This document shows positions 20,925-62,776 of a stretch of 64,000 nucleotides of DNA, piece after piece. The position numbers were made by a program, and so were the translations under genes. Within the stretch, counting starts at the first letter, position 1. Every line of letters begins with the position of its first letter. Source of the stretch: Desulfobacterales bacterium (GTDB taxonomy: Bacteria; Desulfobacterota; Desulfobacteria; Desulfobacterales; SURF-7); contig JBGSLR010000018.1 in NCBI GenBank assembly GCA_041740615.1, forward strand, positions 67,379-131,378, written 5' to 3'. Under the pieces are notes generated by a model. That model did no database searches. It was not told the DNA's origin and was given only the letters and a program-made list of their open reading frames with translations.

Positions 20925-21189
20925 AACCGCACAGGGCCAATTCCCCAACGGAAGATTCAAATTCATTGCGCGCCATTGTGGTTTTGTAGTCGATTAGATA
21001 CATTATTTGGTTGCGAAACGTTGTTTTTTTTGTTACACGGTGTTACTTACCTTTGTTCAGAAAGGCGTTGAAACGTATTTTTCAAAAGCCGAATGAACAG
21101 GATTCATCGTAAGGGGGTATTCGCGCCATAGTTCCGACGTATGGCGATTATCCGGTTTTGTGCCCATCAACTTACCCAAGGAGGAGATC

Positions 21190-22116: not shown

Positions 22117-22161
22117 TTTTCGAAAAAATTACAATCTCCGGTATAACTTGTCATCAGAAAA

Positions 22162-22189
22162 GGGACACACGCCTGCGTGTCCCTTTTTT
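22162..22189 (+). terminator. Rho-independent terminator/attenuator after lipA
   Basis: The hairpin is GGGACAC-acgcctgc-GTGTCCC followed by TTTTTT. An A-run precedes it, so it could act in both directions. Confidence 0.7.
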
Positions 22190-22239
22190 CATCCCTTCCC
22201 ATCAATGAATGGGCGTATTCTCATCCGGGAGTGGTTATC

Positions 22240-23307
22240 GTGCTTCGAATAAAAAAAATTCTGGCCCTTTGCGGCATCGCCGTCATCGGATTCGTGCTGT
22301 ATACCCTGGTTGCAAGACAAAGCGACAGCAAGCCGGAGTACATCTTTGACAAGAACGACGCCATCACGCTGGAAACAGTCGCCAACTCCCGAAAACCGCT
22401 TGCCGCGAACCGATCAAACAAGGCTGGAGATACCTCCGCCGCAGGATCTTCCACCGAACTCGGAACGGATATCCAGGCGGTGTTCCAAAACGGCGGCGTT
22501 ACACCGGAAACCCTTCGCTATTTTCACTACCTCCATAAACGTTTCAAGCAAAGCACCCGTCTTGAAGATCATCTCAAAGAAGTCCGGCAATATCTGCTCA
22601 CGCAAATGCCGACGGATGAAGCGGAGAAACTGCTGCACATCTACCGGGACTATCTGCAGTGTGAAATCGATCTGGTAAAAGAGCTCAATAACTGGGGAAT
22701 GCCCACGGACACCCAAGGAGCCCTGGAATTGCTGGCCAAGACACAACAGTTCAGACGGGAACGGTTGGGCAAGGAACTGGCCGACGCCCTTTTCGGTGCA
22801 GAGGTGAAGTCAAAGGAATATGTTGTGCGCCGCGCGCAGATCATCGAGGACAAAGATGTCTACGGCGAGGAAAAGGAACGCCGCATCGCGGAGTTGAACC
22901 AAGACATGTGGGGTGATGAGGCTGACGCCGTCGAAAATGTTCCCAAACCCTACCAGCGCTATCGTGAAAAGCTGAAAATCTACGAAAAAGACCTGAACGA
23001 AATCCCCGATGATGCGGGCAGGAAGTCGAAGATCAGAGAATTTCGACAAGCCTCTTTTCCCGAGGATGTCGTCCAAAGACTGGAAGAAGTGGATCGAAAA
23101 ATCGACCAGGAAAAAGAAACCGAATCCGGTTATTTCAAGGCGGAAAAACAGATCGCCGACAATCCCGATTTATCCGCAGAAGAACGGCACTCCGCTTTGG
23201 AAAGACTGCAAAATGAAACCTTCGGCGACCAGGCAGACGCCTTTCGAAGAAGAGAAGCCATTCGGAAAGGCCTGGAACAATTGAAATCCCCATCCAGATC
23301 CGACTAA
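22240..23307 (+). CDS. lif: Lipase-specific foldase (Lif / lipase chaperone)
   Basis: It has an N-terminal TM anchor (ILALCGIAVIGFVLYTLV) and a long helical, charged body typical of Lif (LRYFHYLHKRF.., RYREKLKIYEKDL..). It lies immediately downstream of the lipase. The start is uncertain (GTG at 22231 or 22240). The listed start at 22177 lies inside the terminator hairpin. Confidence 0.65.
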   Translation: MLRIKKILALCGIAVIGFVLYTLVARQSDSKPEYIFDKNDAITLETVANSRKPLAANRSNKAGDTSAAGSSTELGTDIQAVFQNGGVTPETLRYFHYLHKRFKQSTRLEDHLKEVRQYLLTQMPTDEAEKLLHIYRDYLQCEIDLVKELNNWGMPTDTQGALELLAKTQQFRRERLGKELADALFGAEVKSKEYVVRRAQIIEDKDVYGEEKERRIAELNQDMWGDEADAVENVPKPYQRYREKLKIYEKDLNEIPDDAGRKSKIREFRQASFPEDVVQRLEEVDRKIDQEKETESGYFKAEKQIADNPDLSAEERHSALERLQNETFGDQADAFRRREAIRKGLEQLKSPSRSD

Positions 23308-41422: not shown

Positions 41423-42151
41423 ATGAAATGCCCGGGACAGGACAGCAGATATTGGAAAAAAGGTGCGATTTTCGAATCCAACTGCCCCAAGTGCAACAGC
41501 GTAGTGGAGTTCTTCAAAGATGACCCGGCCAGAAAATGTTCCCGTTGCGGCCATCGTTTTCTGAACCCCAATATGGATTTCGGCTGCGCCTCCTATTGTG
41601 AATTCGCCGAGCAATGCATCGGCAATTTACCGCCGGAACTGATTGCCCAGAAGGAAAACCTGTTGAAAGACCGGGTGGCGGTGGAAATGAAAAAATATTT
41701 TCATACCGACTTCAAACGAATCGGGCATGCCATGCGGGTGGCCCGCTATGCGGAAAACATCGGTAAGAAGGAAGGGGGCAACCTCGCCGTCATACTGGCG
41801 GCGGCCTATCTGCACGATATCGGTATCCACGAAGCCGAACGCAAATACAACAGCACCGCCGCGACTTACCAGGAACAGGAAGGTCCGCCGATTGCAAGAT
41901 CGATTCTGGAAAAACTGGGCGCGAGGCCGGAATTGATAGATGAAGTCTGCGACATTGTCGCCCATCATCATCATCCCCGACCGGAGGAGACGACCAATTT
42001 CAAAGTACTCTACGATGCGGATCTGATCACGAATTTGGAAGAAAACCACAAGGAGAGTTCCATCGAGCCGGAGAAGCGGAGCCGGATTCTCGAGCGATCC
42101 TTCTTAACCGTCGCCGGAAGAGAAGAAGCGACCATCCGACTGGCCGGATAG
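41423..42151 (+). CDS. Zinc-ribbon + HD-domain phosphohydrolase
   Basis: The N-terminus has MKCPGQ..CPKCNS..CSRCGH and CASYCEFAEQC. The HD motif reads AAAYLHDIGI..AHHHH. A GGAGG RBS lies 6 nt upstream of the ATG at 41423. Confidence 0.75.
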   Translation: MKCPGQDSRYWKKGAIFESNCPKCNSVVEFFKDDPARKCSRCGHRFLNPNMDFGCASYCEFAEQCIGNLPPELIAQKENLLKDRVAVEMKKYFHTDFKRIGHAMRVARYAENIGKKEGGNLAVILAAAYLHDIGIHEAERKYNSTAATYQEQEGPPIARSILEKLGARPELIDEVCDIVAHHHHPRPEETTNFKVLYDADLITNLEENHKESSIEPEKRSRILERSFLTVAGREEATIRLAG

Positions 42152-42294
42152 CCGGAAGGAAGCATTTCTTTGCCACAAAAAAACAGGTCCGGGAGGTCGA
42201 CAGGTCGCTGCGGAGAGCGAACCGGGCTCCTGAACTTTCCGACCTCCGTTGTAAAAACCAGAAATTCAAAAATAATCAAGGGGGTTGCACAACC

Positions 42295-43044
42295 ATGAAA
42301 ATCAAACGAAAAATAATCCAGATAGATGACGAGCGCTGTGACGGATGCGGTCAATGCGTTCCCTCCTGCGCCGAGGGCGCCATTCAAGTCATCGATGGCA
42401 AAGCCAAAGTGATCGAGGACCGCTTCTGTGACGGACTGGGCGCCTGCCTGGGAGAATGTCCCAATGACGCCCTGCATATCATTGAACGGCAGGCGGATGA
42501 ATTTGATGAGGCCGCAGTGGAGGAACATCTGTCCCGCTTCCCAAAATCCATCCCAAATCCGGCGCCGACCATGGCCTGCGGCTGCCCCTCGACCCATATC
42601 CAATCCTTTGCACCGCGGACGCCTTGCCAAGCGGCCAATGCCCCCAAGGATCTCCCTGGCGAGAATTCCGCCCTTACCCACTGGCCGGTGCAGATTCGGC
42701 TCGTTCCGCCGAACGCACCGTTTCTGAAAAACGCCGACCTCTTGATTCTGGCGGACTGCGCACCGGTGGCCTACCCGAACTTGCACCGGGATTTTCTGAA
42801 GGGCAAAGTGGTGCTGCTGGGATGCCCCAAATTCGATGATGTGGAAGCCTATATCGAAAAATTCACCGATATTTTCAAAACAGCGAACCCCAAGAGCATC
42901 ACCACCGTTTTCATGGAAGTGCCCTGTTGCGGGGGATTGCCCGTGATCGTACGGAAAGCGCTGGACGCCGCTGGAAAACGGATTCCCCACCAAACGGTCG
43001 TCATCGGCTGCCGGGGGAAGATATTGGAACAATACGCCGCCTAA
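42295..43044 (+). CDS. Hcp-associated 4Fe-4S ferredoxin-domain protein (FrdX-like)
   Basis: The N-terminus has CDGCGQCVPSCA and CDGLGACLGECP. The C-terminal domain has ADCAPVAY..LGCPKFDD..EVPCCGG. Confidence 0.75.
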   Translation: MKIKRKIIQIDDERCDGCGQCVPSCAEGAIQVIDGKAKVIEDRFCDGLGACLGECPNDALHIIERQADEFDEAAVEEHLSRFPKSIPNPAPTMACGCPSTHIQSFAPRTPCQAANAPKDLPGENSALTHWPVQIRLVPPNAPFLKNADLLILADCAPVAYPNLHRDFLKGKVVLLGCPKFDDVEAYIEKFTDIFKTANPKSITTVFMEVPCCGGLPVIVRKALDAAGKRIPHQTVVIGCRGKILEQYAA

Positions 43045-43290
43045 CCATAAATGGGCCTGATTTGATATCGATGCATATCCACAAAAAGGAACAGCGGCAT
43101 TCACACGGCTTCGCCATCGATTATGAGGGCGCGGAAAAGCGGACCACCCATGTTCCGAACCTCTCGCATGTGCTGATCGAAGTCAATGCGCTGGAATAAT
43201 ATTCCTCAATTGAGCAAGATCATACCATACGAAAAGCGCGATCGAGCGTACACAGGCCTTTCTCAACAGTCAAGCACGGAGCAGTGAGTT

Positions 43291-45683: not shown

Positions 45684-47624
45684 ATGCCTGCGAAACGTAT
45701 CCGGCTCAGCCGGAAACATTCCGCTGAAATTCATCAGAGAGGACGTCCGTTGAATAGTCAGAATAAATCCGAATGGAAACAGAAAATCGTCACACCCGCT
45801 GCCGTGATGGAAAAAATCAAGCCTGGTATGAGTATTTTCATTACCACCGGCTTGGCGGAACCCAGAACCCTGGTCAAACACCTGATGGCCTCGACTGCCC
45901 CCAATTTGCAGGATCTTTCCCTGATTCAGCTGGTAAGTCTCGGTGACGCCATTTCCATTCAGGAACTCAATACCCAGAAATACCGTCTGAAAACTTTTTT
46001 CTCCGGCTGGGTGGCCAGTGAAGCCATCGTTGCCGGTCGGGTAGATTTGATACCAAGTCGTTTCTCGAGAATCCCGGGGTTGATCGCATCCCGGAAAATC
46101 CCACTGGATGTGGCGTTTATTCAAGTAACGCCCCCCAACGAAGCCGGTTATTGCAGCCTGGGGGTGTCGGTGGATGCGGCCCATCACGCCATTGATCATG
46201 CCGGTTTCGTCGTGGGTGAAATCAATACCAAAATACCGCAAACCTTTGGAGATACCTTTGTCCCGGCTTCCAGTTTTGATATGCTGATCGAATCCACCGA
46301 TGATCCCATCTATTTCGACAGATGGCCGGTGGACGAGGTTTTCGATCAAGTTGCGGCCAACGTCGCCAGAGAAATCGAGGACGGCAGCTGTATCTCTTTT
46401 TCCATCGGCCCTCTGTTCGAAGCCTTGAGCCCCCATCTTACCTCCAAGCGCAATCTCGGCATCCATACGCCTTTTTTTACCGACGCTCTGATGGACCTCG
46501 TAAAAAGCGGCGCCGTTACCAACCGGAACAAATCAATTTGGCGGGGAAAATCGGTCGCCTCCTATGCCTTCGGCAGTAAAGAACTGATGTGCTGGCTGGA
46601 TCGAAACCCGTTGGTTGAATTTCAAAGCACCGACAAGGTCTTCGATTCCATTCAAATCGGTCGCAACCCCAAATTCACCCTGGTATTACCGGCCCGCAAA
46701 GTAGACCTCTCCGGCCGAATCGCTCTCCATGCCGGAAAAGGAAACGTCGCCGCCAGCCCGGGGGAAGCAATCGAATTTGTCTCCGGTTCGCAGATCTCCG
46801 AGGGAGGCGTCACGATCTTCGCCCTTCCCAGCCGTAACCTTCAAAAATCACCCAACATCCGACTTTCGGTGGAAAATTTTCCAAACCAGTTCGGTCTGCG
46901 GGAATCGGTCGATATGGTCGTTACGGAATACGGCGTGGCGAATTTGTCTGGTCGGACGGTCCGGGAACGCGCCCAGGCGCTGATTGAAATCGCCCATCCG
47001 GATGACCGCGCCGAACTCGTCGCCCAAGCCAAGGCTGAGAAAATCCTGTATGAAGATCAGATGTTTCTGGCCGAAGTCGCCAGTCTATATCCGGCCGATG
47101 TCGCCACCAGACATACCTTCAAAAACGGGCTCGAAGTCCGTTTTCGCGCCATCAAGCCTTCCGATGAGGAAGAAATGCGGCGCCTGTTTTATCGGTTCTC
47201 CGACGAGGCGGTGTATTATCGCTATTTCTCATCCATTAAGGCCATGCCCCATAATAAAATGCAAAAATATGTCAACGTGGATTATCGAAAAGTGATGTCC
47301 ATTGTGGGTGTAGTCGGTGAAGCCGGCCAAGGTCAAATTATTGCGGAAGCGCGTTTCGTGAAGGACAATGGGAATCCGCCCTTCGCCGATGTCGCTTTCG
47401 TCGTGGATGAAACCTATCAGGGAGTGGGGATCGCAACCTTTATGTACCAGATGCTCCAACGCCTGGCCAAAGACAGGGGGATTCATGGTTTTACAGCGGA
47501 TGTGCTTTCCTCCAACACATCCATGATGAAAGTCTTTGAAAAAGGCGCCGGGCCGCTGAAAGCCAAGCTGGAATACGGAGCGTATTCTCTGACGATTCCA
47601 TTCGACCCACAAGGCCGAACGTAA
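45684..47624 (+). CDS. Acetyl-CoA hydrolase/transferase-family domain fused to a C-terminal GNAT acetyltransferase domain
   Basis: The N-terminal ~450 aa resemble acetyl-CoA hydrolase/transferase (MSIFITTGLAEP, PPNEAGYCSLGVSVD). The C-terminal ~170 aa form a GNAT domain (IRFRAIKPSDEEEMRRLFY..VDETYQGVGIATFMYQML). Confidence 0.75.
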   Translation: MPAKRIRLSRKHSAEIHQRGRPLNSQNKSEWKQKIVTPAAVMEKIKPGMSIFITTGLAEPRTLVKHLMASTAPNLQDLSLIQLVSLGDAISIQELNTQKYRLKTFFSGWVASEAIVAGRVDLIPSRFSRIPGLIASRKIPLDVAFIQVTPPNEAGYCSLGVSVDAAHHAIDHAGFVVGEINTKIPQTFGDTFVPASSFDMLIESTDDPIYFDRWPVDEVFDQVAANVAREIEDGSCISFSIGPLFEALSPHLTSKRNLGIHTPFFTDALMDLVKSGAVTNRNKSIWRGKSVASYAFGSKELMCWLDRNPLVEFQSTDKVFDSIQIGRNPKFTLVLPARKVDLSGRIALHAGKGNVAASPGEAIEFVSGSQISEGGVTIFALPSRNLQKSPNIRLSVENFPNQFGLRESVDMVVTEYGVANLSGRTVRERAQALIEIAHPDDRAELVAQAKAEKILYEDQMFLAEVASLYPADVATRHTFKNGLEVRFRAIKPSDEEEMRRLFYRFSDEAVYYRYFSSIKAMPHNKMQKYVNVDYRKVMSIVGVVGEAGQGQIIAEARFVKDNGNPPFADVAFVVDETYQGVGIATFMYQMLQRLAKDRGIHGFTADVLSSNTSMMKVFEKGAGPLKAKLEYGAYSLTIPFDPQGRT

Positions 47625-47730: not shown

Positions 47731-48090
47731 CTAAAACAGAACCGGTTCGAAATAGTTGACACCCACTTCATAGCTCGGGGGGTTGCTGCCCCGCTTTCTG
47801 CGGCACCACCTGACCTCGGCCCTGTATCCCTTACGCGATTCGGGGCCGCTTGATTCCGGCCTGTGATTTTTTATTTTAATATATATCTCAACCCCTTTCG
47901 GAAGAGCGAATTCCGCTTCGAAACACATGCCACCCATGCTGTGATTTCGCATGACGGCTTGATAGAAATTGTTGGTGTTGTAAAATTCATATAAAATCGG
48001 TGCCGAATGAGAGCTGCGGGTATACGCTCTTTGTTCGGCGAAGGGCCTCGTGTCTGCCCTGCCGTTTCTCCAAATTCCATCTTCATACAT
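47731..48090 (-). CDS. PilZ-domain protein
   Basis: It has QRAYTR (RxxxR) and RNHSMGGMCFE (N-x-S-x-x-G). Confidence 0.6.
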   Translation of the reverse strand: MYEDGIWRNGRADTRPFAEQRAYTRSSHSAPILYEFYNTNNFYQAVMRNHSMGGMCFEAEFALPKGVEIYIKIKNHRPESSGPESRKGYRAEVRWCRRKRGSNPPSYEVGVNYFEPVLF

Positions 48091-48384: not shown

Positions 48385-48702
48385 TCACGGATCATATCGG
48401 ACGCCAAGAATGAAAAAGCCGGAATTCCCATCTCCGGTTTCCCGGCACCACGCCACCTGTGCTTCAAGGATCAGGCAATAATTCATCATTTTGATGACAA
48501 TTCGGGAACCCGGTGACAGGGAGGTTCTGGATTGGAAACACATTCCGGCTGCGTCCATGGACAAGGCCCAACCGTTATGATATTCATGTGACCCTCGGCA
48601 GGCGAAAACAATGGGACTTCTCTCGTCGTGACGTTCCGTTTTGCGCCTTTCCGTGGGAACTGGGGATGTTTTTTTCTCTATCGGTCGATCATTCGTCATC
48701 AC
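48385..48702 (-). CDS. PilZ-domain protein
   Basis: It has ERRKTER followed by LSMDAAGMCFQS. Confidence 0.6.
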   Translation of the reverse strand: MMTNDRPIEKKTSPVPTERRKTERHDERSPIVFACRGSHEYHNGWALSMDAAGMCFQSRTSLSPGSRIVIKMMNYCLILEAQVAWCRETGDGNSGFFILGVRYDP

Positions 48703-48713: not shown

Positions 48714-49325
48714 TTATCGGATGAGGATCGATGCACCGTTTCTGGGGTTCCCGTTTTTTCGACGATCCGGTTTCCGCCGACGTCCTTTGTCGTTCTGCCA
48801 GCCGGGATAAAAAATAAACGGGTCCTCGACTCGATAGGGATAACGCCGATCCGTGCCGCTGCGCCGGTCGATCAACGGGCCGCAGGTGTGGAGTTGAATG
48901 AATTTCCGCAATCGAAACAACTGGTGCTGATTCAGATTATGGAACCGCACGCAGCGTCTTCTGATCTGTTGACTGGAATTCATTTCCGCGATCTCGTAAT
49001 CCAATATGGTTCGAAACGGGAAGCGGTATAGAAACAAACCGTAATCGGGCATTTCCACGGAAAGCTCCGTAAAATCGCCTGCGCGCGATTTCGTATCCAG
49101 ATATTCCACTGCCAATCCGCCATGGCTGATGTCGACGACCGGTCCCAATCGAATAATTTTCGGCGAGACCGCTTTGACGAATCGCGGTTGAAAAAAAACA
49201 ACGCGCGCACAACCCCGGATCTGATAGCGGGCATCTTGCCGCCGTTGCCCGTCTATTGCGGCACAGGGGATCTTCGGTCTACGAACTTTCCGAGGTATGC
49301 TTTCGATAAAATACATTGGGATCAC
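48714..49325 (-). CDS. PilZ-domain protein with an Arg-rich tail
   Basis: It has QRRQDAR, VDISHGGLAVEY and the tail DRRSGTDRR..GRRRKPDRRK. The GTG start overlaps the stop of the TolC-like gene (GTGA). An alternative ATG lies at 49316. Confidence 0.65.
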   Translation of the reverse strand: MIPMYFIESIPRKVRRPKIPCAAIDGQRRQDARYQIRGCARVVFFQPRFVKAVSPKIIRLGPVVDISHGGLAVEYLDTKSRAGDFTELSVEMPDYGLFLYRFPFRTILDYEIAEMNSSQQIRRRCVRFHNLNQHQLFRLRKFIQLHTCGPLIDRRSGTDRRYPYRVEDPFIFYPGWQNDKGRRRKPDRRKNGNPRNGASILIR

Positions 49326-50812
49326 TTATCGTTCGTTTCTTGTTGAAACATGGGCCCCAGCAAACCGATGGCTCTACCGATATCCGCCAGTGCCTTTTCT
49401 CGATCAAAATATGCCGTTGCGGCACTGATGCGCGCCGAATTCCGGGCGAATTCCGTTTCCAGATATCTCGTAATCGTCGCGGAACCTCCTTCAAACTGGA
49501 TTTTGACCAGTTCCAACGATTCTTCCGCACTGGCCACGCTTTTTTCAGCGACCGCAAGACGCGCGCCGGCTTCCTCCAACTTCAGGTAGGCGTTCTTGAC
49601 ATCCAACTGAATTGCCAGCACATTCTTCCGATCGGCGGCCAAAATTTCTTCCAGCCGCGCAGACGCTTGTCGATTCGATGCCCGGGTGGACAGGCCGGTA
49701 AAAAAATACCAGTTCAGCACCATTCCCACGGTCCAATTCTGTCTATCCCGCTCATAGTCGAAATCCGGATCGTCGTGGTAGTATTTCCCCTGAAGATCCA
49801 ACGTGGGTAAATATTCGGCCTTGACCGCATCAATGGCCATACGGGACTGGCTGAGCTGTTCCCGGACCTTTTTCAGTTCCGGCCGTTTTTCCAAGGCCTG
49901 CACCACTCCGTCTGCGTAGCTTTCCGGAACGGTAATGGGTCGGAACGTTGTTTTTTTAAACTGGATTTCCCGGTCGGGACGCAGTCCCATCAGGTTGCTC
50001 AAGGACGCCATGGACATCTGCAACCGGTTCCGACTGACCAGCACCTCTTCATTTGCCCTCGCCAGACGGACTTCCAGGGAAAGGATATCCGATTTCAAAG
50101 CACTTCCCGCATTGAAACGCGACTGCATGATAGTGAGTTGCGATTGGACGGTCGTCACCGATTCCTCCGCGATCTTGATGAAATCCTGAGCAGCCAGGTA
50201 ATCATAATACGCCATTATGATCGCGGCTACCAGTGAATTTTCAACAGTCAGACGATCCAGATGTGAAATTGTCAGGCCGGTGACCGCCATTCTTCGTTGT
50301 AACCAGTCTTTGCCGCCGTTGAACAGATTCATTCGGCCCACCAGCCCGGTTTCCATATTCCGAAACCAACCCGGATCATTGAAATCCGTGCCGGGGGCCA
50401 GGGTGCGCTGGTCGATGGTCTTGAAGAGATAGGCGGAGGGAGCGTCTCCCTGCATATATTCACTGTAAATCCCGACGGCCGGATAAAAGGCGGCCTGGGC
50501 CATATCGGCCGCCGCCTGGGCCTGACGAATCCGGGTCATGGCCATTTGGCTGTCGGGATTGTTTTTCAGGGCTATGCCGATGGCTTCCAGAAGGTCGATG
50601 GGGCGATCAAGAGTGCATCGGGTCGCCTCGTCTCGCTGGTTGCCGCTGCGTTCGGCGCTTTCCAACAGACAAACGGCGTCGGCATATTCCTCGCGAATGC
50701 TGGAATAATCGTACCTCCCCCCCCCGGCCATGGCGGATTCGAACGGCATTCCACCCGTCATAAAAATAAAGACCACCAAACAACCGAATTTTCTGATTAG
50801 CATCCTGTTCAC
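49322..50812 (-). CDS. TolC-family outer-membrane channel protein
   Basis: It has a signal peptide and two repeats of the TolC helical/strand pattern (LLEAIGIALKNNPDSQMAMTRIRQAQAA..., LVKIQFEGGSATITRYLETE). It starts 4-13 nt after the stop of the cytochrome gene. Confidence 0.8.
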   Translation of the reverse strand: MNRMLIRKFGCLVVFIFMTGGMPFESAMAGGGRYDYSSIREEYADAVCLLESAERSGNQRDEATRCTLDRPIDLLEAIGIALKNNPDSQMAMTRIRQAQAAADMAQAAFYPAVGIYSEYMQGDAPSAYLFKTIDQRTLAPGTDFNDPGWFRNMETGLVGRMNLFNGGKDWLQRRMAVTGLTISHLDRLTVENSLVAAIIMAYYDYLAAQDFIKIAEESVTTVQSQLTIMQSRFNAGSALKSDILSLEVRLARANEEVLVSRNRLQMSMASLSNLMGLRPDREIQFKKTTFRPITVPESYADGVVQALEKRPELKKVREQLSQSRMAIDAVKAEYLPTLDLQGKYYHDDPDFDYERDRQNWTVGMVLNWYFFTGLSTRASNRQASARLEEILAADRKNVLAIQLDVKNAYLKLEEAGARLAVAEKSVASAEESLELVKIQFEGGSATITRYLETEFARNSARISAATAYFDREKALADIGRAIGLLGPMFQQETNDK

Positions 50813-50816: not shown

Positions 50817-53486
50817 TTATTGCGTGTTGCGAAACATACCCAGCATATTCGGATGGTGAATTTCTTCCGTCATATCAACTGTATGACATGTCTTGCAATT
50901 CCGGTTGGCACCGATGGGATACGCCTCGCCCTGATACTGAACCGGCTGAACAGTATCCCGGTTATGTCCAAAAATATTCTCGGCCGGATAAACAGCATGG
51001 GTAATCCCATGACATGCCGGACAGCGCAGGCCGACCTCATCGGTGCGACGACGAAACAACTGTTCTTCGGATTTGGTCCATTGATTGAGTTCCACCTGAT
51101 CCACATCCGGAGGCTGAAATTCCTGGTGGCAGTTCAAACAATCCGGTTCGTTCACCCAGGGCTTTCGCGCCGCTATTTTATTCATATCGTCGGTCATTTT
51201 CGGCGTCAAGTTTTTCATCAATCGGGAGGCACCCTTTTTGGCGGCATTCAATTCCGTCACCAGCAGTCCGATGGCGTGGTCTTCCATCCGGGCATGACAA
51301 TTGGTGCAATCGAGACCCAGGGTATGATGAATTCCCCGAAACCCGCGCGTGAACCCTTCGGATGAAGCCGGATGACAAAGAACACAGGCATCCGCACCGC
51401 GGCCGGTCATGTAATTGGCGTGAAATCCATGGATCGCCGCCGAGAGGTTGATGCCCTCCGGTTTACCGGGATCGTCCTCCCGGGAAGGATGGCATTCACG
51501 ACAGGATCGGGGGGCGCCATCTCCGGCCCGGACCGCCAGATCGGTGCGGTTGATACGATCGTGGACGGTCAGAATGTCACGGGCGGTAGGGTCCGAAATC
51601 CCCGCTGTTTGTTGGACGCGCCATGGACCGCCATGGCAATGACGGCACCCCATCTCCGTCGACACCGCAGCCGTGAACTTCGTCGCGGCCAGCAGATTCC
51701 CGCTGGAACGGTCCCTGGCTTCGACGGCAATCAGTGGGTAAGGCTGAAACTCATCGGCCGACGTATAGGGCACCACCGGGACTTTACGAGCAATAAAGCT
51801 GAGGTTTTCTTCCATGAATTCCATGCGATCCGTGACACTTTTCCCAGCCGCACCCATGTTCGGCGCCACTTCCTTTCCCACCAGCGTTTTTGCGAAACGC
51901 CAGTAGTCCACTTGCCGCGCAGGGGTCTCGAATCCGGCCTCGATCCGATATGTCATATCCACTCCATCCGAAACGATTTCGGGCGCCTCACCCCGTCGAA
52001 CCAGTTGGGCATGGATATCGAGTCCCGGAGAGGTAAGGCTGAAAAAACAATCCGCATCCGAAAGCAGTTGCATTCCCTGGTCGCTCCAGGCCAGCAGCAC
52101 ATATCCATCTGTTGCATCATGGAACAGGGGCTGTTCAAACGGACGTTGCGCAGGAGCGATCACCGGCGTTTCCCGATCGATGACCTGATTCAATTCTTCC
52201 ACGATATATATGGCAAGCGCCTGTTTTTCTTCTTCGGTTCCGGGAAATGGCGGCATATAGTCATTGACCTTGCCCATTCCGTCCAGCATGGCCGCCATTC
52301 CGGCCACGGGCAACGTTCGGGTCAGCGCCTTGATATCCTGCAACGGGCCGCCGATGGAATGACATCCCGAACACATGAGTCGGAATAGATCCCGACCGAC
52401 GGCCATTTGATTGTCTTTTCCAATCGTTCGGCGTTGGGTCCAACGCGTGGATGCAAGGATTCCCTGTTGCGCCACCTTCTCCATATCTTGTGCCGAAACG
52501 GAGTTCGAATAGGTGACACCGTAAAGAATATAGGGTCGGCGACCGGCTTCCCGAATCCATTCAAACGACCCCATGAAGAAAAAGCCCGCAATGAGCAGGC
52601 CGAAGGCGATGATCCGCTTGCGCCGTATGGAAAAAGGCCGCGCCATCATCAGGCATCCCACAATGAACAACAGCGCACCGATCGCCGCAAATAATGTTAA
52701 AAAGGGCCGTATTTCAGGAGAACGATCGAATATGACGGCGGTCTGCGGTTCCGGCAACACCGCGATATATCCGTAAGCGGCGACCATCAGCAGCAAAAAG
52801 GGAAACAGCACCCATTTTGCGCAATACCGCATCAGTATCTCCTGAAGGGCTTCCTCTCTGGTGAATACGGCGGTAACGAGTCCGAAAATTCCGGCCAGCA
52901 TGAGCGCCATGAAGGTTCGGAAAAAAAGGGCCGGCCAAAAAGTCGGATTGAAAAAGCCATGCCAGAAGTTTTGGGTGACGAGCCATTTCCCGGGGGTCAG
53001 CATGAATGCGATTATGCCGTTGATGATAAAAAGGGACAGGAAAGCGAACAGAGCATATAGCCATCCGATACGCATATGCCGGCCGCGTTCCATACTGTCG
53101 AAGGTGTAATAATAGATGAACAGGGAAATGATTTCGCACAGAAAAAAGACCCATTCGGTTGCAAACGCAAACACAAAAATATGGATCAGTTTGCTGGTGG
53201 CGGTGGGATTCAGAAGCGATATGGTAAACCAGATGCCGACGCCGGTCAGGGCGCCGAACACCATGGTCAGCAGCAAGAAAAAACGGCTGTGACGATGCAC
53301 ATAGGCGAGCAGCGCCCAGGAGTTTTCACGAACGGCCTTGCGTTCGGTCAAAACCAGAAAAAGCCCCCCGCCGACGGCGAAATGCGAGACATAGACATGG
53401 ACGGTTGCCATCAGGGCGATGAGAAAGCCGCCGCCGAGAGCCCCCAGATCCCATACCGGATAATGGATCAGCCAGATCGAATTCAT
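50817..53486 (-). CDS. Cytochrome-bd subunit-I (CydA)-like 8-TM membrane domain fused to a periplasmic eight-haem c-type cytochrome domain
   Basis: The protein is 889 aa starting at MNSIW, with the ATG overlapping the upstream stop (ATGA). The first ~320 aa align by eye to CydA landmarks: LMATVHVYVSHFAVGGG (helix-1 His region), FGALTGVG, ATEWVFFLCE and EAGRRPY (compare GRQPW). The rest carries CSGCH, CRHCH, CRECH, CVLCH, CTNCH, CLNCH, CPACH and CKTCH. Confidence 0.75.
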   Translation of the reverse strand: MNSIWLIHYPVWDLGALGGGFLIALMATVHVYVSHFAVGGGLFLVLTERKAVRENSWALLAYVHRHSRFFLLLTMVFGALTGVGIWFTISLLNPTATSKLIHIFVFAFATEWVFFLCEIISLFIYYYTFDSMERGRHMRIGWLYALFAFLSLFIINGIIAFMLTPGKWLVTQNFWHGFFNPTFWPALFFRTFMALMLAGIFGLVTAVFTREEALQEILMRYCAKWVLFPFLLLMVAAYGYIAVLPEPQTAVIFDRSPEIRPFLTLFAAIGALLFIVGCLMMARPFSIRRKRIIAFGLLIAGFFFMGSFEWIREAGRRPYILYGVTYSNSVSAQDMEKVAQQGILASTRWTQRRTIGKDNQMAVGRDLFRLMCSGCHSIGGPLQDIKALTRTLPVAGMAAMLDGMGKVNDYMPPFPGTEEEKQALAIYIVEELNQVIDRETPVIAPAQRPFEQPLFHDATDGYVLLAWSDQGMQLLSDADCFFSLTSPGLDIHAQLVRRGEAPEIVSDGVDMTYRIEAGFETPARQVDYWRFAKTLVGKEVAPNMGAAGKSVTDRMEFMEENLSFIARKVPVVPYTSADEFQPYPLIAVEARDRSSGNLLAATKFTAAVSTEMGCRHCHGGPWRVQQTAGISDPTARDILTVHDRINRTDLAVRAGDGAPRSCRECHPSREDDPGKPEGINLSAAIHGFHANYMTGRGADACVLCHPASSEGFTRGFRGIHHTLGLDCTNCHARMEDHAIGLLVTELNAAKKGASRLMKNLTPKMTDDMNKIAARKPWVNEPDCLNCHQEFQPPDVDQVELNQWTKSEEQLFRRRTDEVGLRCPACHGITHAVYPAENIFGHNRDTVQPVQYQGEAYPIGANRNCKTCHTVDMTEEIHHPNMLGMFRNTQ

Positions 53487-54577
53487 GGCGCAGGGTCCAT
53501 CCTCTCCTCCTTCGACCGAAACGCCAGCCGGAGCATATACCCGATAACGGCTGCTCCGGAAATAAGCGAAACGATAAAAACAATCATGGGTCCGTATTGC
53601 GGTTGAACCGGTATGACCTTCATCTCGTGATACGGCTGCAGGTATGCCGCCCGGATCAGATCCCGCAGAAGGACCATTGCCGCGGTAACGACCAGGGTGA
53701 GCCAGATCGTCGGCCATACCCGCCGTTTCAAGGCCAGGTAAATTCCGCCAAGCCCGCCGCAAATCCCGACCAGCAACAAACCGGCGAAATACGGATCGCC
53801 GCCCATGATGAGACCGCGGACCGGTGTAGGCAATTTCACGAGGAACCAGACACCGACGATCATCTGCGTTCCGGTAGCCAGGATGTAGTATCGCATTCCC
53901 CGGTCGACATGCCCAGCCGCCCCGGCCTCTCCCGTCGGTTTTCCGGTGGACCGGACAGCCGCCATGAACAATCCGGCCACGGCCACGGAGGCAGTCACGA
54001 AATGTACGAAACGCGGCCACAAAATCGGATCGCGCAGATTGAGCAGGGTACCGCCGGCATTGGTAAAATAGGCTATCCAAGCCGACGGCCGTTGCATCAG
54101 GGTCATGTTGTTGACGAACACAAAGGCGATATATAGAAACAGCAAGGGAATCAGTCCGATCAGGAAATGAGAGAACCGCCCCAAGGCGTCGAATTTGTAT
54201 TTCATGAGATATGCACTGTAATAGGCGACGATCAGGACACCGATGACCGATAGCCAATATACACCCATGAGAATGGAACTGGGATAGATCAGATTGCCGT
54301 AGAGTACTTGAAGAAACAGCAACGGGGCGACGCCTGCATTGACGGCAAAGGCGATGACAAACGGCAGTTTTTGAAAAATATCCCGCTCGAAATCCCGCAC
54401 ACCGGTCCCTTTGCCCCGATGATTTCCGCAGACCTCCAACAGGGCAATCAGACTGCTGCCGAGCACGATATTCATGAACAGCAGGTGAATGAAAAAGGTC
54501 ACGATCTGAAAAAAACGGAGCCAGCCCCAATGAACCGGAATTGCATCGGGCGTCGGTATGAGTGTGGCGATGTTCAT
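53483..54577 (-). CDS. CydA-like/CydB-position integral membrane protein (about 9 TM), partner of 50817..53486
   Basis: Helix 1 (VTFFIHLLFMNIVLGSSLIALLE) and helix 2 (AFAVNAGVAPLLFLQ) resemble CydA. There are ATGA overlaps at both ends. Confidence 0.55.
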   Translation of the reverse strand: MNIATLIPTPDAIPVHWGWLRFFQIVTFFIHLLFMNIVLGSSLIALLEVCGNHRGKGTGVRDFERDIFQKLPFVIAFAVNAGVAPLLFLQVLYGNLIYPSSILMGVYWLSVIGVLIVAYYSAYLMKYKFDALGRFSHFLIGLIPLLFLYIAFVFVNNMTLMQRPSAWIAYFTNAGGTLLNLRDPILWPRFVHFVTASVAVAGLFMAAVRSTGKPTGEAGAAGHVDRGMRYYILATGTQMIVGVWFLVKLPTPVRGLIMGGDPYFAGLLLVGICGGLGGIYLALKRRVWPTIWLTLVVTAAMVLLRDLIRAAYLQPYHEMKVIPVQPQYGPMIVFIVSLISGAAVIGYMLRLAFRSKEERMDPAP

Positions 54578-55263
54578 GCGTGAAATTCCCCCAAACGGTT
54601 TGTCGACGCCGCCAAGCGGGCCACGGTCGTATTATGCAGGTCTCCGTCCAGATACATTCTCACCATGGCGTGATCCTTCTTCAAGGCTTCCGTGGCGCGG
54701 CGAATTTCATCCGGCCCGATCATCCTCGCCGCCCAGGCCGCCAGACCACGACAGGACGGATCCTCCGATGATAAATACGGCAGCAACAAGGGGCCCGCTT
54801 CTTTCAGCAGTTGTGGTCTTTTCTGGGCCAGTCGCCCGACACCCCACAAGACACCCCGCTGGAGCATTTCATATTCGATGTAATTGCCATCCGGCCGAAG
54901 ATAAGAAACCAGGATGCGGTGATATTCCCCGGCCAGGCTTGCCTGCCTGGCCATGATATCTCCCATGGACTCCGGTATCCCCCAGCCGATACCGCCGGAT
55001 TCATCGTTCAAGGCCCACATGAAACGCCGCATGACAACCCTGGCCGACTCCATTTCCCGGTCCGCAAGGGTTGCAACCACCGTTCCCGTGGCTGAAACCG
55101 CCCGCCACCGGATAAACTCATCCCGATGGCATAACAGCGACAGCAGCGCGCTCACCGTTTTACGGGATGGAAGACGGACCACTTCCATCAACATGGCATC
55201 CATATCCGCCTGTTGAAGGATTGCCGCTACTTGCCGTCTGTATGTTCCTGCGCCCATGGCCAC
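54574..55263 (-). CDS. HEAT/armadillo-like repeat protein (conserved hypothetical)
   Basis: It has repeated helical hairpins with HEAT-like signatures (LLCHRDEFIRWRAVSATG, LSSEDPSCRGLAAWAA). The stop overlaps the next start (ATGA). The start is GTG at 55263 or ATG at 55257. Confidence 0.5.
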   Translation of the reverse strand: MAMGAGTYRRQVAAILQQADMDAMLMEVVRLPSRKTVSALLSLLCHRDEFIRWRAVSATGTVVATLADREMESARVVMRRFMWALNDESGGIGWGIPESMGDIMARQASLAGEYHRILVSYLRPDGNYIEYEMLQRGVLWGVGRLAQKRPQLLKEAGPLLLPYLSSEDPSCRGLAAWAARMIGPDEIRRATEALKKDHAMVRMYLDGDLHNTTVARLAASTNRLGEFHA

Positions 55264-55275
55264 ACAACATCTTTC

Positions 55276-55473
55276 CTACGGTTCTTCCCAGTGGATACAG
55301 TCCCGCGGACAGTTTTTAATGGCTTCGTCCACTTCGGTTTCCGGATAATCGGATAGTTCGGCCACCTCGATATACCCCGAATCGTTTTCCCGAAAAACCC
55401 CAGGGCAGACCTCAACGCATACACCGCAGAGAATGCAGGCATCCAGTTCAACGACGGGCACCCTGGACTTCAC
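55276..55473 (-). CDS. Small ferredoxin (single Fe-S cluster type)
   Basis: The product is 65 aa. It has CILCGVCVEVCP plus a distal CP (NCPRDC). The GTG start overlaps the flavodiiron-gene stop (GTGA) and follows GGGAGA. The 5' extension of the listed ORF overlaps the upstream gene and is rejected. Confidence 0.7.
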   Translation of the reverse strand: MKSRVPVVELDACILCGVCVEVCPGVFRENDSGYIEVAELSDYPETEVDEAIKNCPRDCIHWEEP

Positions 55474-56669
55474 GATGTTTCTTCTCCCGCCATCACTGCA
55501 GCGCCGATCCTGCGGCCCAGATCCAGACAGGTATCGATTCCCGCAGGATCCGGAACATATTGGATTCGACACCCCGGATCAATCAACCGGAAATCCATGA
55601 CTTCCAGCTCCTGATTGATCATTTTCACGGCTTCGCCGCTCCAGCCGTACGATCCGAATGCGGCGGCGATTTTGTTTCTCGGCTTCAGCCCTTTCATATA
55701 CGTCAAAAAATCACTGACAGTCGGGAAGAGGCAGTTATTCAGCGTGGGAGAACCGACGACGATGGCCCTGGCATCCAGAACTTCTGTCATGATGTCGCTG
55801 CGATGGTTTCGGCGCAGATGCAGCGGTTTAACGTCTACCCCATGCTCTTGTATACCCTGCACGATGGCCGAAGCCATCTTCTCGGTGCTTTGCCACATGG
55901 TGTCGTAGATCACGATGGCCTTTGGGGCGGGTTTTTGGGCGCTCCAGTCGACATAGGCATCGATGATTCGGGCGGGATTTTTACGCCAGATGATCCCATG
56001 GTCCGGACAGATCATTTGGATTTCAAGCCCCATTTCGGTGACCTTTTCCAAAAGCTTCTGGGTTTTGGCGGAATACAGCAGGAGAATATTGGCATAGTAT
56101 TTCTTGGCCTGGTGCATGATGCCAGCGTCGATTTGATCATCGAATTTTTCCGGTCCGGCATAATGCTGGCCGAAGGCATCGCTGGAAAACAGGATCTTGT
56201 CCTCCTGGACATAGGTGAACATGCTGTCGGGCCAGTGCAGCATGCGGGTTTCCAGGAACTGCAGCGTTCGTTTGCCGATGCGCAATGTCTCGCCGTTTTC
56301 CACGGCGCGGTAATTCCATTTTGCGCCGAAATGCAGGCTGAGATTTTTCAGGCCCATTTTGGAGCAATAGAGGGGTTTCTCTTCGCCGATCTTGTGCATC
56401 ACCCGCGGCAGGGATCCGGAATGATCCATTTCCGTATGGTTGCTGACGACCAGGTCGATTTTCTTCGGATCGACGATCTGTTCGATATTGTTCAACAGCT
56501 GATCGGCAAATTCCTTTTTGACCGTATCGATCAGGGCAATCTGCTCGTCGACCAGTAAAAATGCGTTATAGGTAGTCCCCATATCGGTTGAATACCCATG
56601 AAAGTCCCGAATATTCCAATCCGTCACCCCGACGTCGTAAATTCCTTTGGCGATTTCTAACGGTTTCAT
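55470..56669 (-). CDS. Flavodiiron protein (rubredoxin:oxygen/NO oxidoreductase, FprA/ROO type)
   Basis: The MBL-like diiron domain has SNHTEMDHSG. The C-terminal flavodoxin domain has AIVIYDTMWQSTEKMA and GSPTLNN. Confidence 0.9.
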   Translation of the reverse strand: MKPLEIAKGIYDVGVTDWNIRDFHGYSTDMGTTYNAFLLVDEQIALIDTVKKEFADQLLNNIEQIVDPKKIDLVVSNHTEMDHSGSLPRVMHKIGEEKPLYCSKMGLKNLSLHFGAKWNYRAVENGETLRIGKRTLQFLETRMLHWPDSMFTYVQEDKILFSSDAFGQHYAGPEKFDDQIDAGIMHQAKKYYANILLLYSAKTQKLLEKVTEMGLEIQMICPDHGIIWRKNPARIIDAYVDWSAQKPAPKAIVIYDTMWQSTEKMASAIVQGIQEHGVDVKPLHLRRNHRSDIMTEVLDARAIVVGSPTLNNCLFPTVSDFLTYMKGLKPRNKIAAAFGSYGWSGEAVKMINQELEVMDFRLIDPGCRIQYVPDPAGIDTCLDLGRRIGAAVMAGEETS

Positions 56670-60256: not shown

Positions 60257-61433
60257 TGGGAATCCTTTTTTTCAGGCGGATTCTGATCTCCACATGATCC
60301 AATAGCGGTGCGAACAAGTTCATGAACAAAATCGACAGCATGACCCCTTCCGGATAGGCCGGGTTGAACACCCGGACCAGAACCGTCAATACCCCGATGA
60401 AAAACCCGTAAACCCAGCGGGATTTTTCCATTCCCGGGCCGGATACGGGATCTGTCGCCATATAGACGATACCGAAGGCAAACCCGCCCATTACCAGATG
60501 ATAATACGGACTGAGACCGAACCAGGCCGGCGATGCATCACCGGCGATCAGATTCAGCAAAAACCCGCTTCCCAAAACACCGATAATTCCGCCCAATATG
60601 ATTCGATAGCTGGCGATACCGGTCACAATCAGCAGCAACGCTCCCAGAATGCAACAGAAAGTCGATGTTTCCCCGATACTGGCTGGATACATTCCCCAGA
60701 ACAACGTGCCGAATGAAAACCCTGCATGATTCAGCAACTGATGAATCTCGTCGCCGGTTTCGGCAAGGGCGGCAACGGCAAGCGGCGTTGCCCCGCTGAT
60801 GGTGTCTACAGCAGCGTTTTTCAGATTCCCAATTGCGACCCAGACGGATCCCCCGGACATCTGCCCCGGGTAGGCAAAGAAAAGAAAGGCCCGCGCGGTC
60901 AATGCCGGATTTAAAATATTGCGACCGGTCCCGCCGAAGACTTCCTTACCGATCAACACACCGAACGAAATACCGACCGCAGCCTGCCAGAGCGGAATGG
61001 TGGGCGGCAGGGTCAAGGGGAACAGCAGCCCGGTCACCAGAAATCCTTCACTGATGGGGTGTTTTCGAAAAATCGCAAACAATATCTCCCAAAAAAAACC
61101 GACGGTGTAAGAGACAACGATCAGCGGCAGAACGATTTCAAGTCCTTTCAGCAGAGCGGTGCCGGTTCCGACAAGATGACCGGCGGCATGCAGGGTCTGA
61201 TAACCGGTGTTATAGATGCCCCAGCCAACGGGTGGGATCAGCGCAACCAGGACGATGCTCATGAAGCGCTTGAGATCCAGATTGTCTCGCAGGTGCGGGC
61301 CATTGCGGGTCACATGCGCCGGAATGAAAAAAAGGGTTTCGGTGGCCTCGAACAACGGTTTCAAACGGGAGAGCCGTCCGGTTCCGGTGAAATGCTTGCG
61401 CAGGGATTCGAATACATGTTCCAGCATTTTCAT
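60249..61433 (-). CDS. nqrB: NQR subunit B (covalent-FMN membrane subunit)
   Basis: It is a polytopic NqrB/RnfD-family protein with the flavinylation motif DTISGATPLA. Its start overlaps the nqrA stop (ATGA). Confidence 0.9.
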   Translation of the reverse strand: MKMLEHVFESLRKHFTGTGRLSRLKPLFEATETLFFIPAHVTRNGPHLRDNLDLKRFMSIVLVALIPPVGWGIYNTGYQTLHAAGHLVGTGTALLKGLEIVLPLIVVSYTVGFFWEILFAIFRKHPISEGFLVTGLLFPLTLPPTIPLWQAAVGISFGVLIGKEVFGGTGRNILNPALTARAFLFFAYPGQMSGGSVWVAIGNLKNAAVDTISGATPLAVAALAETGDEIHQLLNHAGFSFGTLFWGMYPASIGETSTFCCILGALLLIVTGIASYRIILGGIIGVLGSGFLLNLIAGDASPAWFGLSPYYHLVMGGFAFGIVYMATDPVSGPGMEKSRWVYGFFIGVLTVLVRVFNPAYPEGVMLSILFMNLFAPLLDHVEIRIRLKKRIPNV

Positions 61434-62776
61434 GGTCGGGCCTGTTCTTTGTAGTAAGAGAGTTTGGCCGCGTTGAACGTCTCACAAAGCGCGATCTTCG
61501 ATGGACAGACGTAGGTGCATAAGCCACAGGCGACACAATCCAGCAGCCCGTGTTCCAATGCTTCCTCGATTTCATCGACCAGCAGACTCTTATAGGTGAA
61601 CTGGGGCAGAATATCCACCGGACAAATGCGCGCACAGGAGGAACAGTTGACGCACGCCCTTTCTTCTCCATGCAGATTGCAATCCACCGAAAGATCTTTC
61701 GGGTTCAACCGGGATAGAAAGGTCCGTGAGCTGCTGGGCTTACCATACCCCGGACGAATGAATCCCAGAAAGGTTTTTTCAGCTCCCTCGGGAATCAGAT
61801 TCAGTGAAGTCTCATACAATCCGAGGAAAGAGGCTTGCCGGACTTTCCTGCCCCGAAAAAGACCTCCGGCGACAATCCGTATGCTGTTTTCATCAATGGA
61901 ATCCCCTATGAACGCGCTGACCGGCGCCCCCATACGGGACAAAAAATGCGTTGGGGTATTCGCCGCGCTTCCGGCCACGGACACGACTCGTTCCGTAGGC
62001 CATTTCCCGGTGCTGAGAAATTGAGCCAACAGCAGCACATCCTGCCCCTGAATGAACCAGGCAGGATTGTCCTCCCGGCGTTTGCGCGTATGATACAGCA
62101 GCACTCCCGGATCACAGGCGGGATAGGAACCGGACAGGGTATGGGTGATCATCTCGCCAAAATCCCCCATGACCCGCCTCTGCTGTTGATCCACGGTGAC
62201 ATATACCCGATCGGTAATCCGTTTCAGCGCAAGGAGCCCGTATTCGATCAATTGCTTTTTACCGGCAAGATACACATCCGCGGCCGGGTGAAACGGTTCA
62301 TCCGCCGACAAGGCCACAATGATCGATGGCGGCGCCACCTCAGGATCGACGATATCCCGGAACGGAAGAGATCGCAGGAATGGCAGCATTCCCCCTTCGG
62401 TCAAGCGCCCCAACAGATCCCGGCCGGTTACATGTTGCAGGTCATCCCGGGAAATCGGTGTAAAGTTCTCTTGTTTTTCTTCCGCATCCAGTTGAATGAT
62501 GATTTCTCGGATCACTCGACGGGGGCCGAAATCAATCCGATGAACCGTCCCCCCTCCCGGGGAAAGAAAGCGGATATCCGTTCGGCGCTTATCGGTGAAC
62601 AGCAGGGAACCGATATTGACATGGTCGCCCACCTTCACATGCAATCGCGGCTTGATATAGGGGATACTTTCCGGGATCGCCGCGACGAATGAAATCGGTT
62701 TGATCGGTTCGATTTCGGCCCGCGGTTTTCCGGAGATGGCGGGGAGGTATCTTTTTCCGGCACTGATTGTTATCAT
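61430..62776 (-). CDS. nqrA: NQR subunit A, unusual in retaining two complete 4Fe-4S ferredoxin motifs
   Basis: The NqrA-type N-terminus reads IKPRLHVKVGDHVNIGSLLFTDKR..GGGTVHRIDFGPRRVIREIII. The C-terminus has CVNCSSCARICP and CVACGLCTYVCP. Confidence 0.85.
   Translation of the reverse strand: MITISAGKRYLPAISGKPRAEIEPIKPISFVAAIPESIPYIKPRLHVKVGDHVNIGSLLFTDKRRTDIRFLSPGGGTVHRIDFGPRRVIREIIIQLDAEEKQENFTPISRDDLQHVTGRDLLGRLTEGGMLPFLRSLPFRDIVDPEVAPPSIIVALSADEPFHPAADVYLAGKKQLIEYGLLALKRITDRVYVTVDQQQRRVMGDFGEMITHTLSGSYPACDPGVLLYHTRKRREDNPAWFIQGQDVLLLAQFLSTGKWPTERVVSVAGSAANTPTHFLSRMGAPVSAFIGDSIDENSIRIVAGGLFRGRKVRQASFLGLYETSLNLIPEGAEKTFLGFIRPGYGKPSSSRTFLSRLNPKDLSVDCNLHGEERACVNCSSCARICPVDILPQFTYKSLLVDEIEEALEHGLLDCVACGLCTYVCPSKIALCETFNAAKLSYYKEQARP

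Follow-up and report, generated by a model that had tools for sequence, protein, structure and literature searches.

A 64,000-nucleotide stretch of a Desulfobacterales bacterium genome (GenBank assembly GCA_041740615.1, contig JBGSLR010000018.1, positions 67,379 to 131,378; here called the window) carries two overlapping genes, both on the minus strand, for a membrane protein pair of the cytochrome bd superfamily. Gene B (53483..54577, 364 aa) encodes a CydA paralogue of the OR-C1b type with nine transmembrane (TM) helices and no haem-c sites. Gene A (50817..53486, 889 aa) encodes a CydA-like membrane domain of the OR-C1a type fused to a periplasmic octahaem cytochrome c. By its sequence features the pair is a new member of OR-C1, a known family defined by bioinformatics. 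With a probability of roughly 0.55, we read it as a heterodimer of two CydA-like subunits that serves as a bd-type terminal reductase and is fed by cytochrome c. Of this, the data show the fold and topology, the haem-c sites, the conserved residues and the pairing of the genes. Cytochrome bd oxidases are one of just three superfamilies that reduce O2 to water. To our knowledge, every characterised bd oxidase uses quinol and has no c-haem.

The list of open reading frames (ORFs) for the window shows a 1237-aa ORF at 50817..54530 (-), and a 364-aa ORF at 53483..54577 (-) is listed in another frame. The long ORF had been taken in an earlier, sequence-only reading as two genes joined by an ATGA overlap at 53483..53486. 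The junction sequence, gcgccATGAattcg, bears this out: the TGA of B and the ATG of A share these four positions. Over its initial 348 codons, the long ORF reads through gene B in the wrong frame. The B frame is the real one because it has 1424 database homologues, its family comprises 2,180 representative clusters at 50% identity (in a library of 1.84 billion proteins), and its AlphaFold (AF2) model is confident. Among 81 related loci from reference genomes, 74 have B immediately before A, mostly with the same 4-bp overlap. A frameshift, sequencing or assembly error joining the two halves is excluded by this recurrence, together with the B homologues and the AF2 model. Judged from the junction sequence and its recurrence in related loci, the overlap is translational coupling of B and A.

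Residues 1–316 of A (52539..53486) form an eight-helix CydA-like domain. The CydA landmarks that the sequence-only reading had picked out in the downstream gene, VHVYVSHFAVGGG, GALTGVG, ATEWVFFLCE and EAGRRPY, are all present in the 889-aa protein. The Pfam model Cyt_bd_oxida_I (PF01654) matched residues 23–209 with 40.6 bits against a gathering cut-off of 26.2. When A was compared with all PDB sequences by phmmer, it matched Geobacillus CydA (5DOQ_A, E = 1.4e-7) and also the CydA of M. smegmatis bd-II. The 5DOQ_A alignment pairs H30 of A with H21, E111 with E101, E118 with E108, and EAGRRPY with EVGRQPW. By hhalign, A was weakly significant (E = 4e-4) against E. coli CydA and CydB, used as single sequences or as 6-sequence profiles. 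The AF2 model of A was built on a 120-sequence alignment and has a mean pLDDT of 89.8 and a pTM of 0.86. Foldseek of this model against the PDB gave bd-oxidase subunits for all of the best 20 matches, led by the CydA chain 9R2G_A (M. smegmatis bd-II; E = 2e-8, TM-score 0.70 on the target). The relation of the TM domain to CydA is thus upheld by both the Pfam and the structure comparison.

Hydropathy and the AF2 model both give eight TM helices in A, and there is no ninth helix. In both, TM6 and TM7 are linked by about 16 aa where canonical CydA carries the Q-loop. Lys and Arg number 14 in the odd (cytoplasmic) loops versus 3 in the even (periplasmic) loops. The topology of A is therefore N-out/C-out, and the chain after TM8 is periplasmic. 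This agrees with the earlier description of a protein that lacks the Q-loop and helix 9 and leaves the membrane on the periplasmic side. The CxxCH domain is accordingly predicted to be in the periplasm rather than in the cytoplasm.

Active-site residues were assigned by alignment with E. coli CydA, whose numbering was checked on the genuine E. coli cydAB sequence. H30 of A corresponds to H19, the haem d ligand in canonical bd. E111, E118, H137 and S151 correspond to E99, E107, H126 and S140, which belong to the proton channel in canonical bd. The two glutamates E111 and E118 are 7 apart, one residue fewer than in E. coli and like Geobacillus-type enzymes. E313, in E-A-G-R-R-P-Y, corresponds to E445 (E-Y-G-R-Q-P-W), the haem b595 ligand in canonical bd, and E309, R312, E313 and R316 make up the E445-GRxP[WY] motif. 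Conservation was scored over 82 homologues (43–73% identical) from Desulfobacterota, Bacteroidota, Ignavibacteriota, Calditrichia and others. H30, E111, E118, S151, E309, R312, E313 and R316 are 100% conserved. H35 and H66, conserved in at least 80 of the 82, are by their position candidates for a cytoplasmic proton path. At the position of H186, a b558 ligand, the homologues have Phe (77) or Leu (5) and never His; the A protein of the window has Phe189. No Met in A is aligned to M393, the other b558 ligand. By this pattern of residue conservation, A retains the di-haem O2-reducing site and the proton-supply residues and has discarded the quinol-oxidising apparatus.

The periplasmic part of A contains eight CxxCH sites, at residues 372, 614, 662, 701, 727, 783, 822 and 864. 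Exactly eight were also found in 80 of the 82 homologues. The first site lies in a class-I-like monohaem cytochrome c unit (residues 332–432, 52191..52493), with C372-S-G-C-H376 and a distal Met411 in YMPPF. The unit matches the Pfam model Cytochrome_CBB3 (E = 2.5e-5) and, weakly, QcrC. C372, C375, H376 and M411 are conserved in all 82 homologues, and Met411 is likely the sixth ligand of the class-I haem. This unit is the haem-c core common to the whole OR-C family. It is followed by a haem-free insert (residues ~455–606, 51669..52124), which the AF2 model folds into an immunoglobulin-like β-sandwich. The strands of the insert span residues 462–605 with pLDDT > 90, and its Foldseek matches to Ig-like domains are weak. 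The remaining seven sites lie in a heptahaem region (residues 610–889, 50820..51659), which gave Pfam matches to Cytochrome_C7 and to MtrC/MtrF domain II/IV, and weak NCBIfam matches to NrfH, HmcA and DmsE. The order read from the letters, a CSGCH...YMPPF unit, a haem-free insert and then seven more sites, was therefore correct, and the insert is a β-sandwich.

Seven free His residues in the heptahaem region (H642, H686, H689, H720, H830, H877 and H878) are invariant or nearly so. They are candidate distal ligands, enough in number for all seven haems, which probably all have bis-His coordination. No c-haem here is evidently catalytic, and the region would then serve electron transfer alone. 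A catalytic c-haem of the CxxCK or five-coordinate kind is not supported, since A has no CxxCK and the invariant free His and Met residues suffice for eight haems. A phmmer search of the PDB with the periplasmic part gave marginal matches to class-I cytochrome c (QcrC) and nothing else. Foldseek with the whole A model matched no multihaem structure, as expected for the apo model of a loop-rich haem domain. A tetrahaem quinol dehydrogenase of the NapC/NrfH/CymA type was also rejected: the NrfH model TIGR03153 scored 22.9 bits against a cut-off of 134, and the membrane part has the 8-TM bd fold where that type has a single N-terminal TM helix.

B had no Pfam or NCBIfam match, and Cyt_bd_oxida_I matched none of 120 B family members at E <= 1. 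By hhalign, B residues 27–317 aligned with the TM domain of A helix for helix over ~275 columns, with 95–96% probability (96.2%) and E = 2e-8 to 2.1e-9. Against E. coli CydA and CydB, as single sequences or 6-sequence profiles, the alignment was collinear and not significant (E ~0.1–0.2). Against a CydB profile, E was 0.13 over 40 columns, which is not significant either. A search of all PDB sequences with the B profile gave chance sulfotransferase matches only and no direct sequence link of B to CydA. The AF2 model of B (pLDDT 87.4, pTM 0.89) has nine helices, of which the ninth (329–359) brings the C-terminus back to the cytoplasm. In a Foldseek search of the PDB with this model, each of the best 16 matches is a CydA or CydB chain. 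The kinship of B with CydA follows from the A-to-B hhalign and from Foldseek, and by these comparisons B is a CydA paralogue and the pseudo-symmetric partner of A. The sequence-only reading had seen in the upstream 364-aa protein a CydA-like protein of about nine TM helices that occupies the CydB position. The helices and the CydA likeness stood up in AF2, hhalign and Foldseek. The position did not, as far as gene order is concerned: B is upstream of its partner, whereas cydB is downstream of cydA. B occupies the CydB position only as the partner subunit.

Conservation in B was scored over 142 representatives that are 31–49% identical to B. Just ~22 positions are at least 93% conserved. Among them are H31 (141/142), H192 (142/142), M301 (139/142), R189, R305 and R309. 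H31 aligns with H30 of A, the H19 site. H192, in R-F-V-H-F (family motif R-[FY]-[VL]-H-F), aligns with F189 of A and with K-F-V-H186-T of E. coli, and M301 aligns with F303 of A. In the alignments, B has no counterparts of E99, E107 and E445. The paralogues therefore carry complementary ligand sets. B probably binds at least one low-spin b haem of its own, for which His192 and Met301 are the obvious pair, and possibly a second b haem at His31. Its TM6–TM7 loop is short and there is no Q-loop. CxxCH was found in B in none of the 74 loci.

Compared with canonical CydAB (E. coli bd-I, 6RKO/6RX4; Geobacillus, 5DOQ; M. smegmatis bd-II, 9R2G), both subunits are alike in fold by Foldseek. A has the haem d/b595 ligands and the Glu-Glu proton channel, and both complexes pair two related membrane subunits. 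However, A lacks the Q-loop (K252, E257), the b558 ligands (H186, M393) and TM9. The canonical enzyme has no c-haems, whereas A has eight covalently bound. There is no CydB here; the partner is a CydA paralogue with candidate haem ligands of its own, and the gene order is reversed, with B first. The CydAA' enzyme (qOR4a/qOR4b) of Caldivirga maquilingensis is similar in that both subunits are CydA-derived and the second keeps the H19-type His. Unlike A/B, it lacks haem c, and its CydA retains the Q-loop and b558 and oxidises quinol. Where B keeps the H186-type His, CydA' has Ala.

OR-C1a and OR-C1b were defined by Murali, Gennis and Hemp in 2021 (bioRxiv 10.1101/2021.01.16.426971; later ISME J). 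They described an OR-C CydA of eight helices without a quinol site, in which H19, E99 and E107 are conserved and H186 is changed to Phe. Its haem-c extension is C-terminal and periplasmic, with "as many as 8" haems in Desulfovibrionia. They described its neighbour, the paralogue OR-C1b, as 8-TM. They proposed an oxygen reductase with cytochrome c as donor. Their Table S7 gives octahaem OR-C1a genes in many cultured strains, with haem-free "hypothetical" OR-C1b genes beside them. Genetically tractable carriers of the octahaem form in that table include D. alaskensis G20 (Dde_0291) and Desulfomicrobium baculatum (Dbac_2631); Draconibacterium orientale is another cultured carrier. The A protein of the window shows CydA homology, eight TM helices, no Q-loop, a CxxCH extension, H19, E99 and E107 kept, the spacing of the two Glu shorter by one residue than in E. 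coli as in Table S6 of that paper, a residue other than His at H186, and an adjacent OR-C1b. Every feature of OR-C1 that can be tested in silico was thus found, and A/B is therefore a member of OR-C1. The window pair shares with the family the change of H186 to Phe, the up to eight CxxCH sites seen in Desulfobacterota, and the adjacent CydA-like partner, which is annotated "hypothetical" and haem-free in the octahaem type; nothing contradicts membership.

Three points are new with respect to the published description, each read from sequences or models. First, Table S6 of Murali et al. (10.1101/2021.01.16.426971) marks E445 as absent in OR-C1a; in our alignment its equivalent, E313, is invariant, contrary to that table. 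Second, B has two His and one Met that are invariant, among them the b558-type His; the analysis by Murali et al. did not extend to OR-C1b residues. Third, B is predicted to have nine helices, not eight. That surveys record CydA homologues with c-type cytochromes, as the sequence-only reading had stated, is confirmed by this paper. That reading knew of none characterised biochemically, and our literature search agreed, as it yielded the survey of Murali et al. only. In the searchable literature, outside which supplementary tables and subscription journals lie, no biochemical, genetic or expression study of OR-C1 was found. The locus tags of eleven homologues in cultured strains had no main-text mentions in that literature.

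Relatives of A were scanned in reference genomes, one genome per species, and neighbourhoods were examined for the best 80 loci. The OR-C branch is widespread: relatives of A were found in at least 582 species-level genomes. The closest homologue (73% identity) is from a Thermodesulfobacteriota metagenome-assembled genome, and the hosts of the OR-C branch include sulfate reducers, Bacteroidota, Ignavibacteriota and others. All-against-all clustering across the 80 loci showed no conserved neighbours besides A, B and antisense shadow ORFs. A and B therefore form a self-contained two-subunit module. A full-length octahaem A without an adjacent B was seen in a Desulfonema-type clade (loci L001, which is Desulfonema magnum CP061800.1, L004, L011 and L020). 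The downstream neighbours of A in D. magnum are an Rrf2-rubrerythrin fusion and a small sulfite-reductase-like protein. Canonical cydAB occurs within 5 kb of A/B in five related loci.

One related locus, L072, contains a second, monohaem OR-C1 pair at 19887..22640 in the opposite gene order (A' then B'), and canonical cydAB at 14018..16389. The TM landmarks of A recur in A' (482 aa), which of the haem-c part retains the class-I unit alone (CSRCH). B' keeps the equivalents of H31, H192 and M301, and a C-terminal periplasmic CAACH haem-c unit replaces its TM9. This pair suggests an ancestral plan in which both subunits were CydA-like 8-TM modules and each carried a periplasmic cytochrome c. On the way to the octahaem form, B seems to have exchanged its haem c for a helix and A to have gained the β-sandwich and seven haems.

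How such a pair might work was drawn from these features: that haems occupy the membrane sites and that B binds one, which way electrons flow and what is reduced are all inferred. In a sulfate reducer, periplasmic donors such as the cytochrome c3 pool fed by hydrogenases and formate dehydrogenases would pass electrons into the heptahaem chain. The electrons would then move to the class-I His/Met haem, located where the Q-loop and b558 would be, and from there to the membrane-embedded b/d-type haem site of A at H30/E313. O2, or possibly NO or H2O2, would be reduced at this site with cytoplasmic protons supplied via E118 and E111. The enzyme would both detoxify the oxidant and add to the membrane potential. 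A keeps the O2-site residues and has lost the quinol residues, which points to a terminal reductase fed by c-haems, as Murali et al. proposed (10.1101/2021.01.16.426971). The context is consistent with a reductase: a flavodiiron protein of the O2/NO reductase class is encoded directly upstream, and a hybrid-cluster protein (Prismane family, 542 aa; 39683..41311, +) about 10 kb from A/B. A terminal reductase fed by built-in periplasmic c-haems is a concept shared with the haem-copper oxidases cbb3 (CcoP) and caa3 (subunit II–cytochrome c), and the Pfam model derived from the CcoP cytochrome c domain gives a weak match to the first haem unit of A. However, those oxidases belong to an unrelated catalytic superfamily, and A/B has no copper site.

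Several points weigh against a cytochrome-c-fed reductase. The searchable literature records neither a purification nor a knock-out of an OR-C member. Only residue conservation suggests O2 as the substrate, and the hosts are mostly strict anaerobes. Eight haems would exceed the needs of a simple donor interface. A purely structural role would leave the His/His/Met set of B unexplained, and this set includes the His that in canonical enzymes is in contact with the quinol-facing haem. The flavodiiron neighbourhood is limited to the close relatives of the window.

The ligand pattern in B allows a tentative alternative, possible though on the unlikely side, in which the ligands of one bd enzyme are split between the subunits. 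A b558-like haem at His192/Met301 of B would be the electron input, maybe from quinol, and A would hold the reducing site. The c-haem chain of A would bridge both subunits and also accept electrons from soluble cytochromes, perhaps with a second B haem at His31. Such a split would fit the alignment, in which H192 and M301 of B each face Phe in A, and E111, E118 and E313 of A have no counterpart in B. It would also fit the haem-c distribution. In the monohaem subtype, A' (CSRCH) and B' (CAACH) both end in a periplasmic haem-c unit; in the octahaem subtype that of B is replaced by TM9, and A has gained seven haems and the β-sandwich. The membrane haem of B may therefore need a periplasmic c-haem neighbour, which A would now provide. 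However, the case is one of inference throughout, no quinol site can be recognised in B, and in the four Desulfonema-type loci without an adjacent B, this subunit may be dispensable or encoded elsewhere. If the ligands are split in this way, three redox pools would be joined: periplasmic cytochromes, possibly menaquinol via B, and O2 or NO at A. Such a wiring plan is not known from any solved terminal oxidase.

More doubtful is that the module only exchanges electrons with the menaquinone pool, with the octahaem part as a periplasmic wire and no small-molecule reduction at the bd-type site. It would then be a quinol dehydrogenase or a cytochrome c3:menaquinone reductase, by analogy with Qrc, Hmc, Tmc, Ohc or NrfH/CymA. 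The b558-type H192 and the invariant Met301 of B would suit such a role, since b558 is the quinol-facing haem in canonical bd, and so would the weak matches of the heptahaem region to wires of the NrfH, DmsE, HmcA and MtrC types. Sulfate reducers hold many multihaem-plus-membrane complexes, and Qrc, Hmc, Tmc, Nhc, Ohc and NrfH/CymA resemble A/B in having a periplasmic multihaem cytochrome on an integral membrane module in Desulfobacterota. However, their membrane parts are of the NrfD, NarI or single-helix type and not the bd fold; they act on quinones and lack the conserved bd active-site residues. In A and B, no Q-loop, no K252/E257 equivalents and no quinone-site motif were identified, and the TM6–TM7 loops are ~13–16 aa. 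The absolute conservation of the H19, E99, E107, S140 and E445 equivalents in A would have no obvious role in a simple quinol dehydrogenase. The sequence-only reading had preferred a quinol-oxidising or quinone-reducing module over one that reduces O2. This is poorly supported, because A keeps the O2-site and proton residues and has lost the Q-loop and the b558 ligands.

Least probable is that a pair of the same architecture takes electrons from the periplasm to detoxify something other than O2, as a reductase or peroxidase acting on NO, nitrite-derived species, H2O2 or peroxynitrite. Canonical bd oxidases react with NO, H2O2 and peroxynitrite, the hosts are anaerobic, a protein of the flavodiiron NO/O2 reductase class is encoded directly upstream and the hybrid-cluster protein nearby, but this gene context is not conserved across the family and no residue pattern separates NO- or H2O2-type substrates from O2.

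A cytochrome-c-fed bd reductase, if that is what A/B is, would add a terminal oxidase class to the physiology of anaerobes. It would bear on the O2 and NO tolerance of sulfate reducers in oxic–anoxic transition zones, and it would be an example of a quinol oxidase rewired to a periplasmic electron supply. The architecture is striking yet already catalogued. Its value is a large, experimentally unstudied oxidase branch together with specific residues that can be tested: H30, E111, E118 and E313 in A, and H31, H192 and M301 in B.

The genes on both sides of the pair were rejected as parts of the enzyme, as they are clade-specific neighbours. Upstream on the same strand, 54574..55263 encodes a cytoplasmic HEAT-repeat protein of the DVU0298 family (NCBIfam NF045662, 259.8 bits), whose stop overlaps the start of B by ATGA. 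The next gene, 55470..56669 (-), encodes the flavodiiron protein (FDP; Pfam ODP and Flavodoxin_1), which scored 459 bits with the NCBIfam flavorubredoxin-like model, below its equivalog cut-off. The HEAT gene adjoins B only in loci L003, L005 and L006, and the HEAT–FDP pair stays together away from A/B at 6343–8616 of L006 and 20204–22142 of L010. The HEAT gene therefore belongs with FDP and not with A/B. The DVU0298-family protein may be a partner of FDP, given that the pair (54574..56669 in the window) is conserved. A literature match to DVU0298 was discarded as irrelevant; it stands in a table of carbon monoxide dehydrogenase (CODH) loci and is probably a transposed DVU2098. Downstream, a TolC-like outer-membrane factor (49322..50812, -; Pfam OEP, 199 bits) starts 4–13 nt past the stop of A. 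Elsewhere it directly follows A only in L003, L005 and L039. It has no adjacent membrane-fusion or inner-membrane transporter gene, and is followed by three small PilZ-domain genes at 48714..49325, 48385..48702 and 47731..48090 (-). Rfam, tRNA, promoter and terminator scans gave nothing informative.

Elsewhere in the window, a 364-aa ORF at 42010..43104 (-) has no Pfam match at E <= 1e-5. A 646-aa protein (45684..47624, +) combines acetyl-CoA hydrolase/transferase domains with a C-terminal GNAT acetyltransferase domain. At 1598..6540 (-), an HdrA-like flavoprotein (1116 aa, Pyr_redox_2 and several Fer4 domains) is followed by an MvhD(FlpD)-Fer4-CCG fusion. An nqrABCDEF-like operon runs from 62776 down to 57044. 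The HdrA-like and MvhD/HdrBC-like proteins, the hybrid-cluster protein and the Nqr operon fit a sulfate-reducing Desulfobacterota genome. Besides its three NqrA domains, the NqrA-like protein encoded by the first gene of this operon (61430..62776, -) carries a C-terminal 2x[4Fe-4S] domain of the ferredoxin type (Fer4_7 and related, aa 372–428). RnfC has an Fe-S domain, canonical NqrA none. From its domains, the NqrA-like gene looks like an Nqr/Rnf intermediate.

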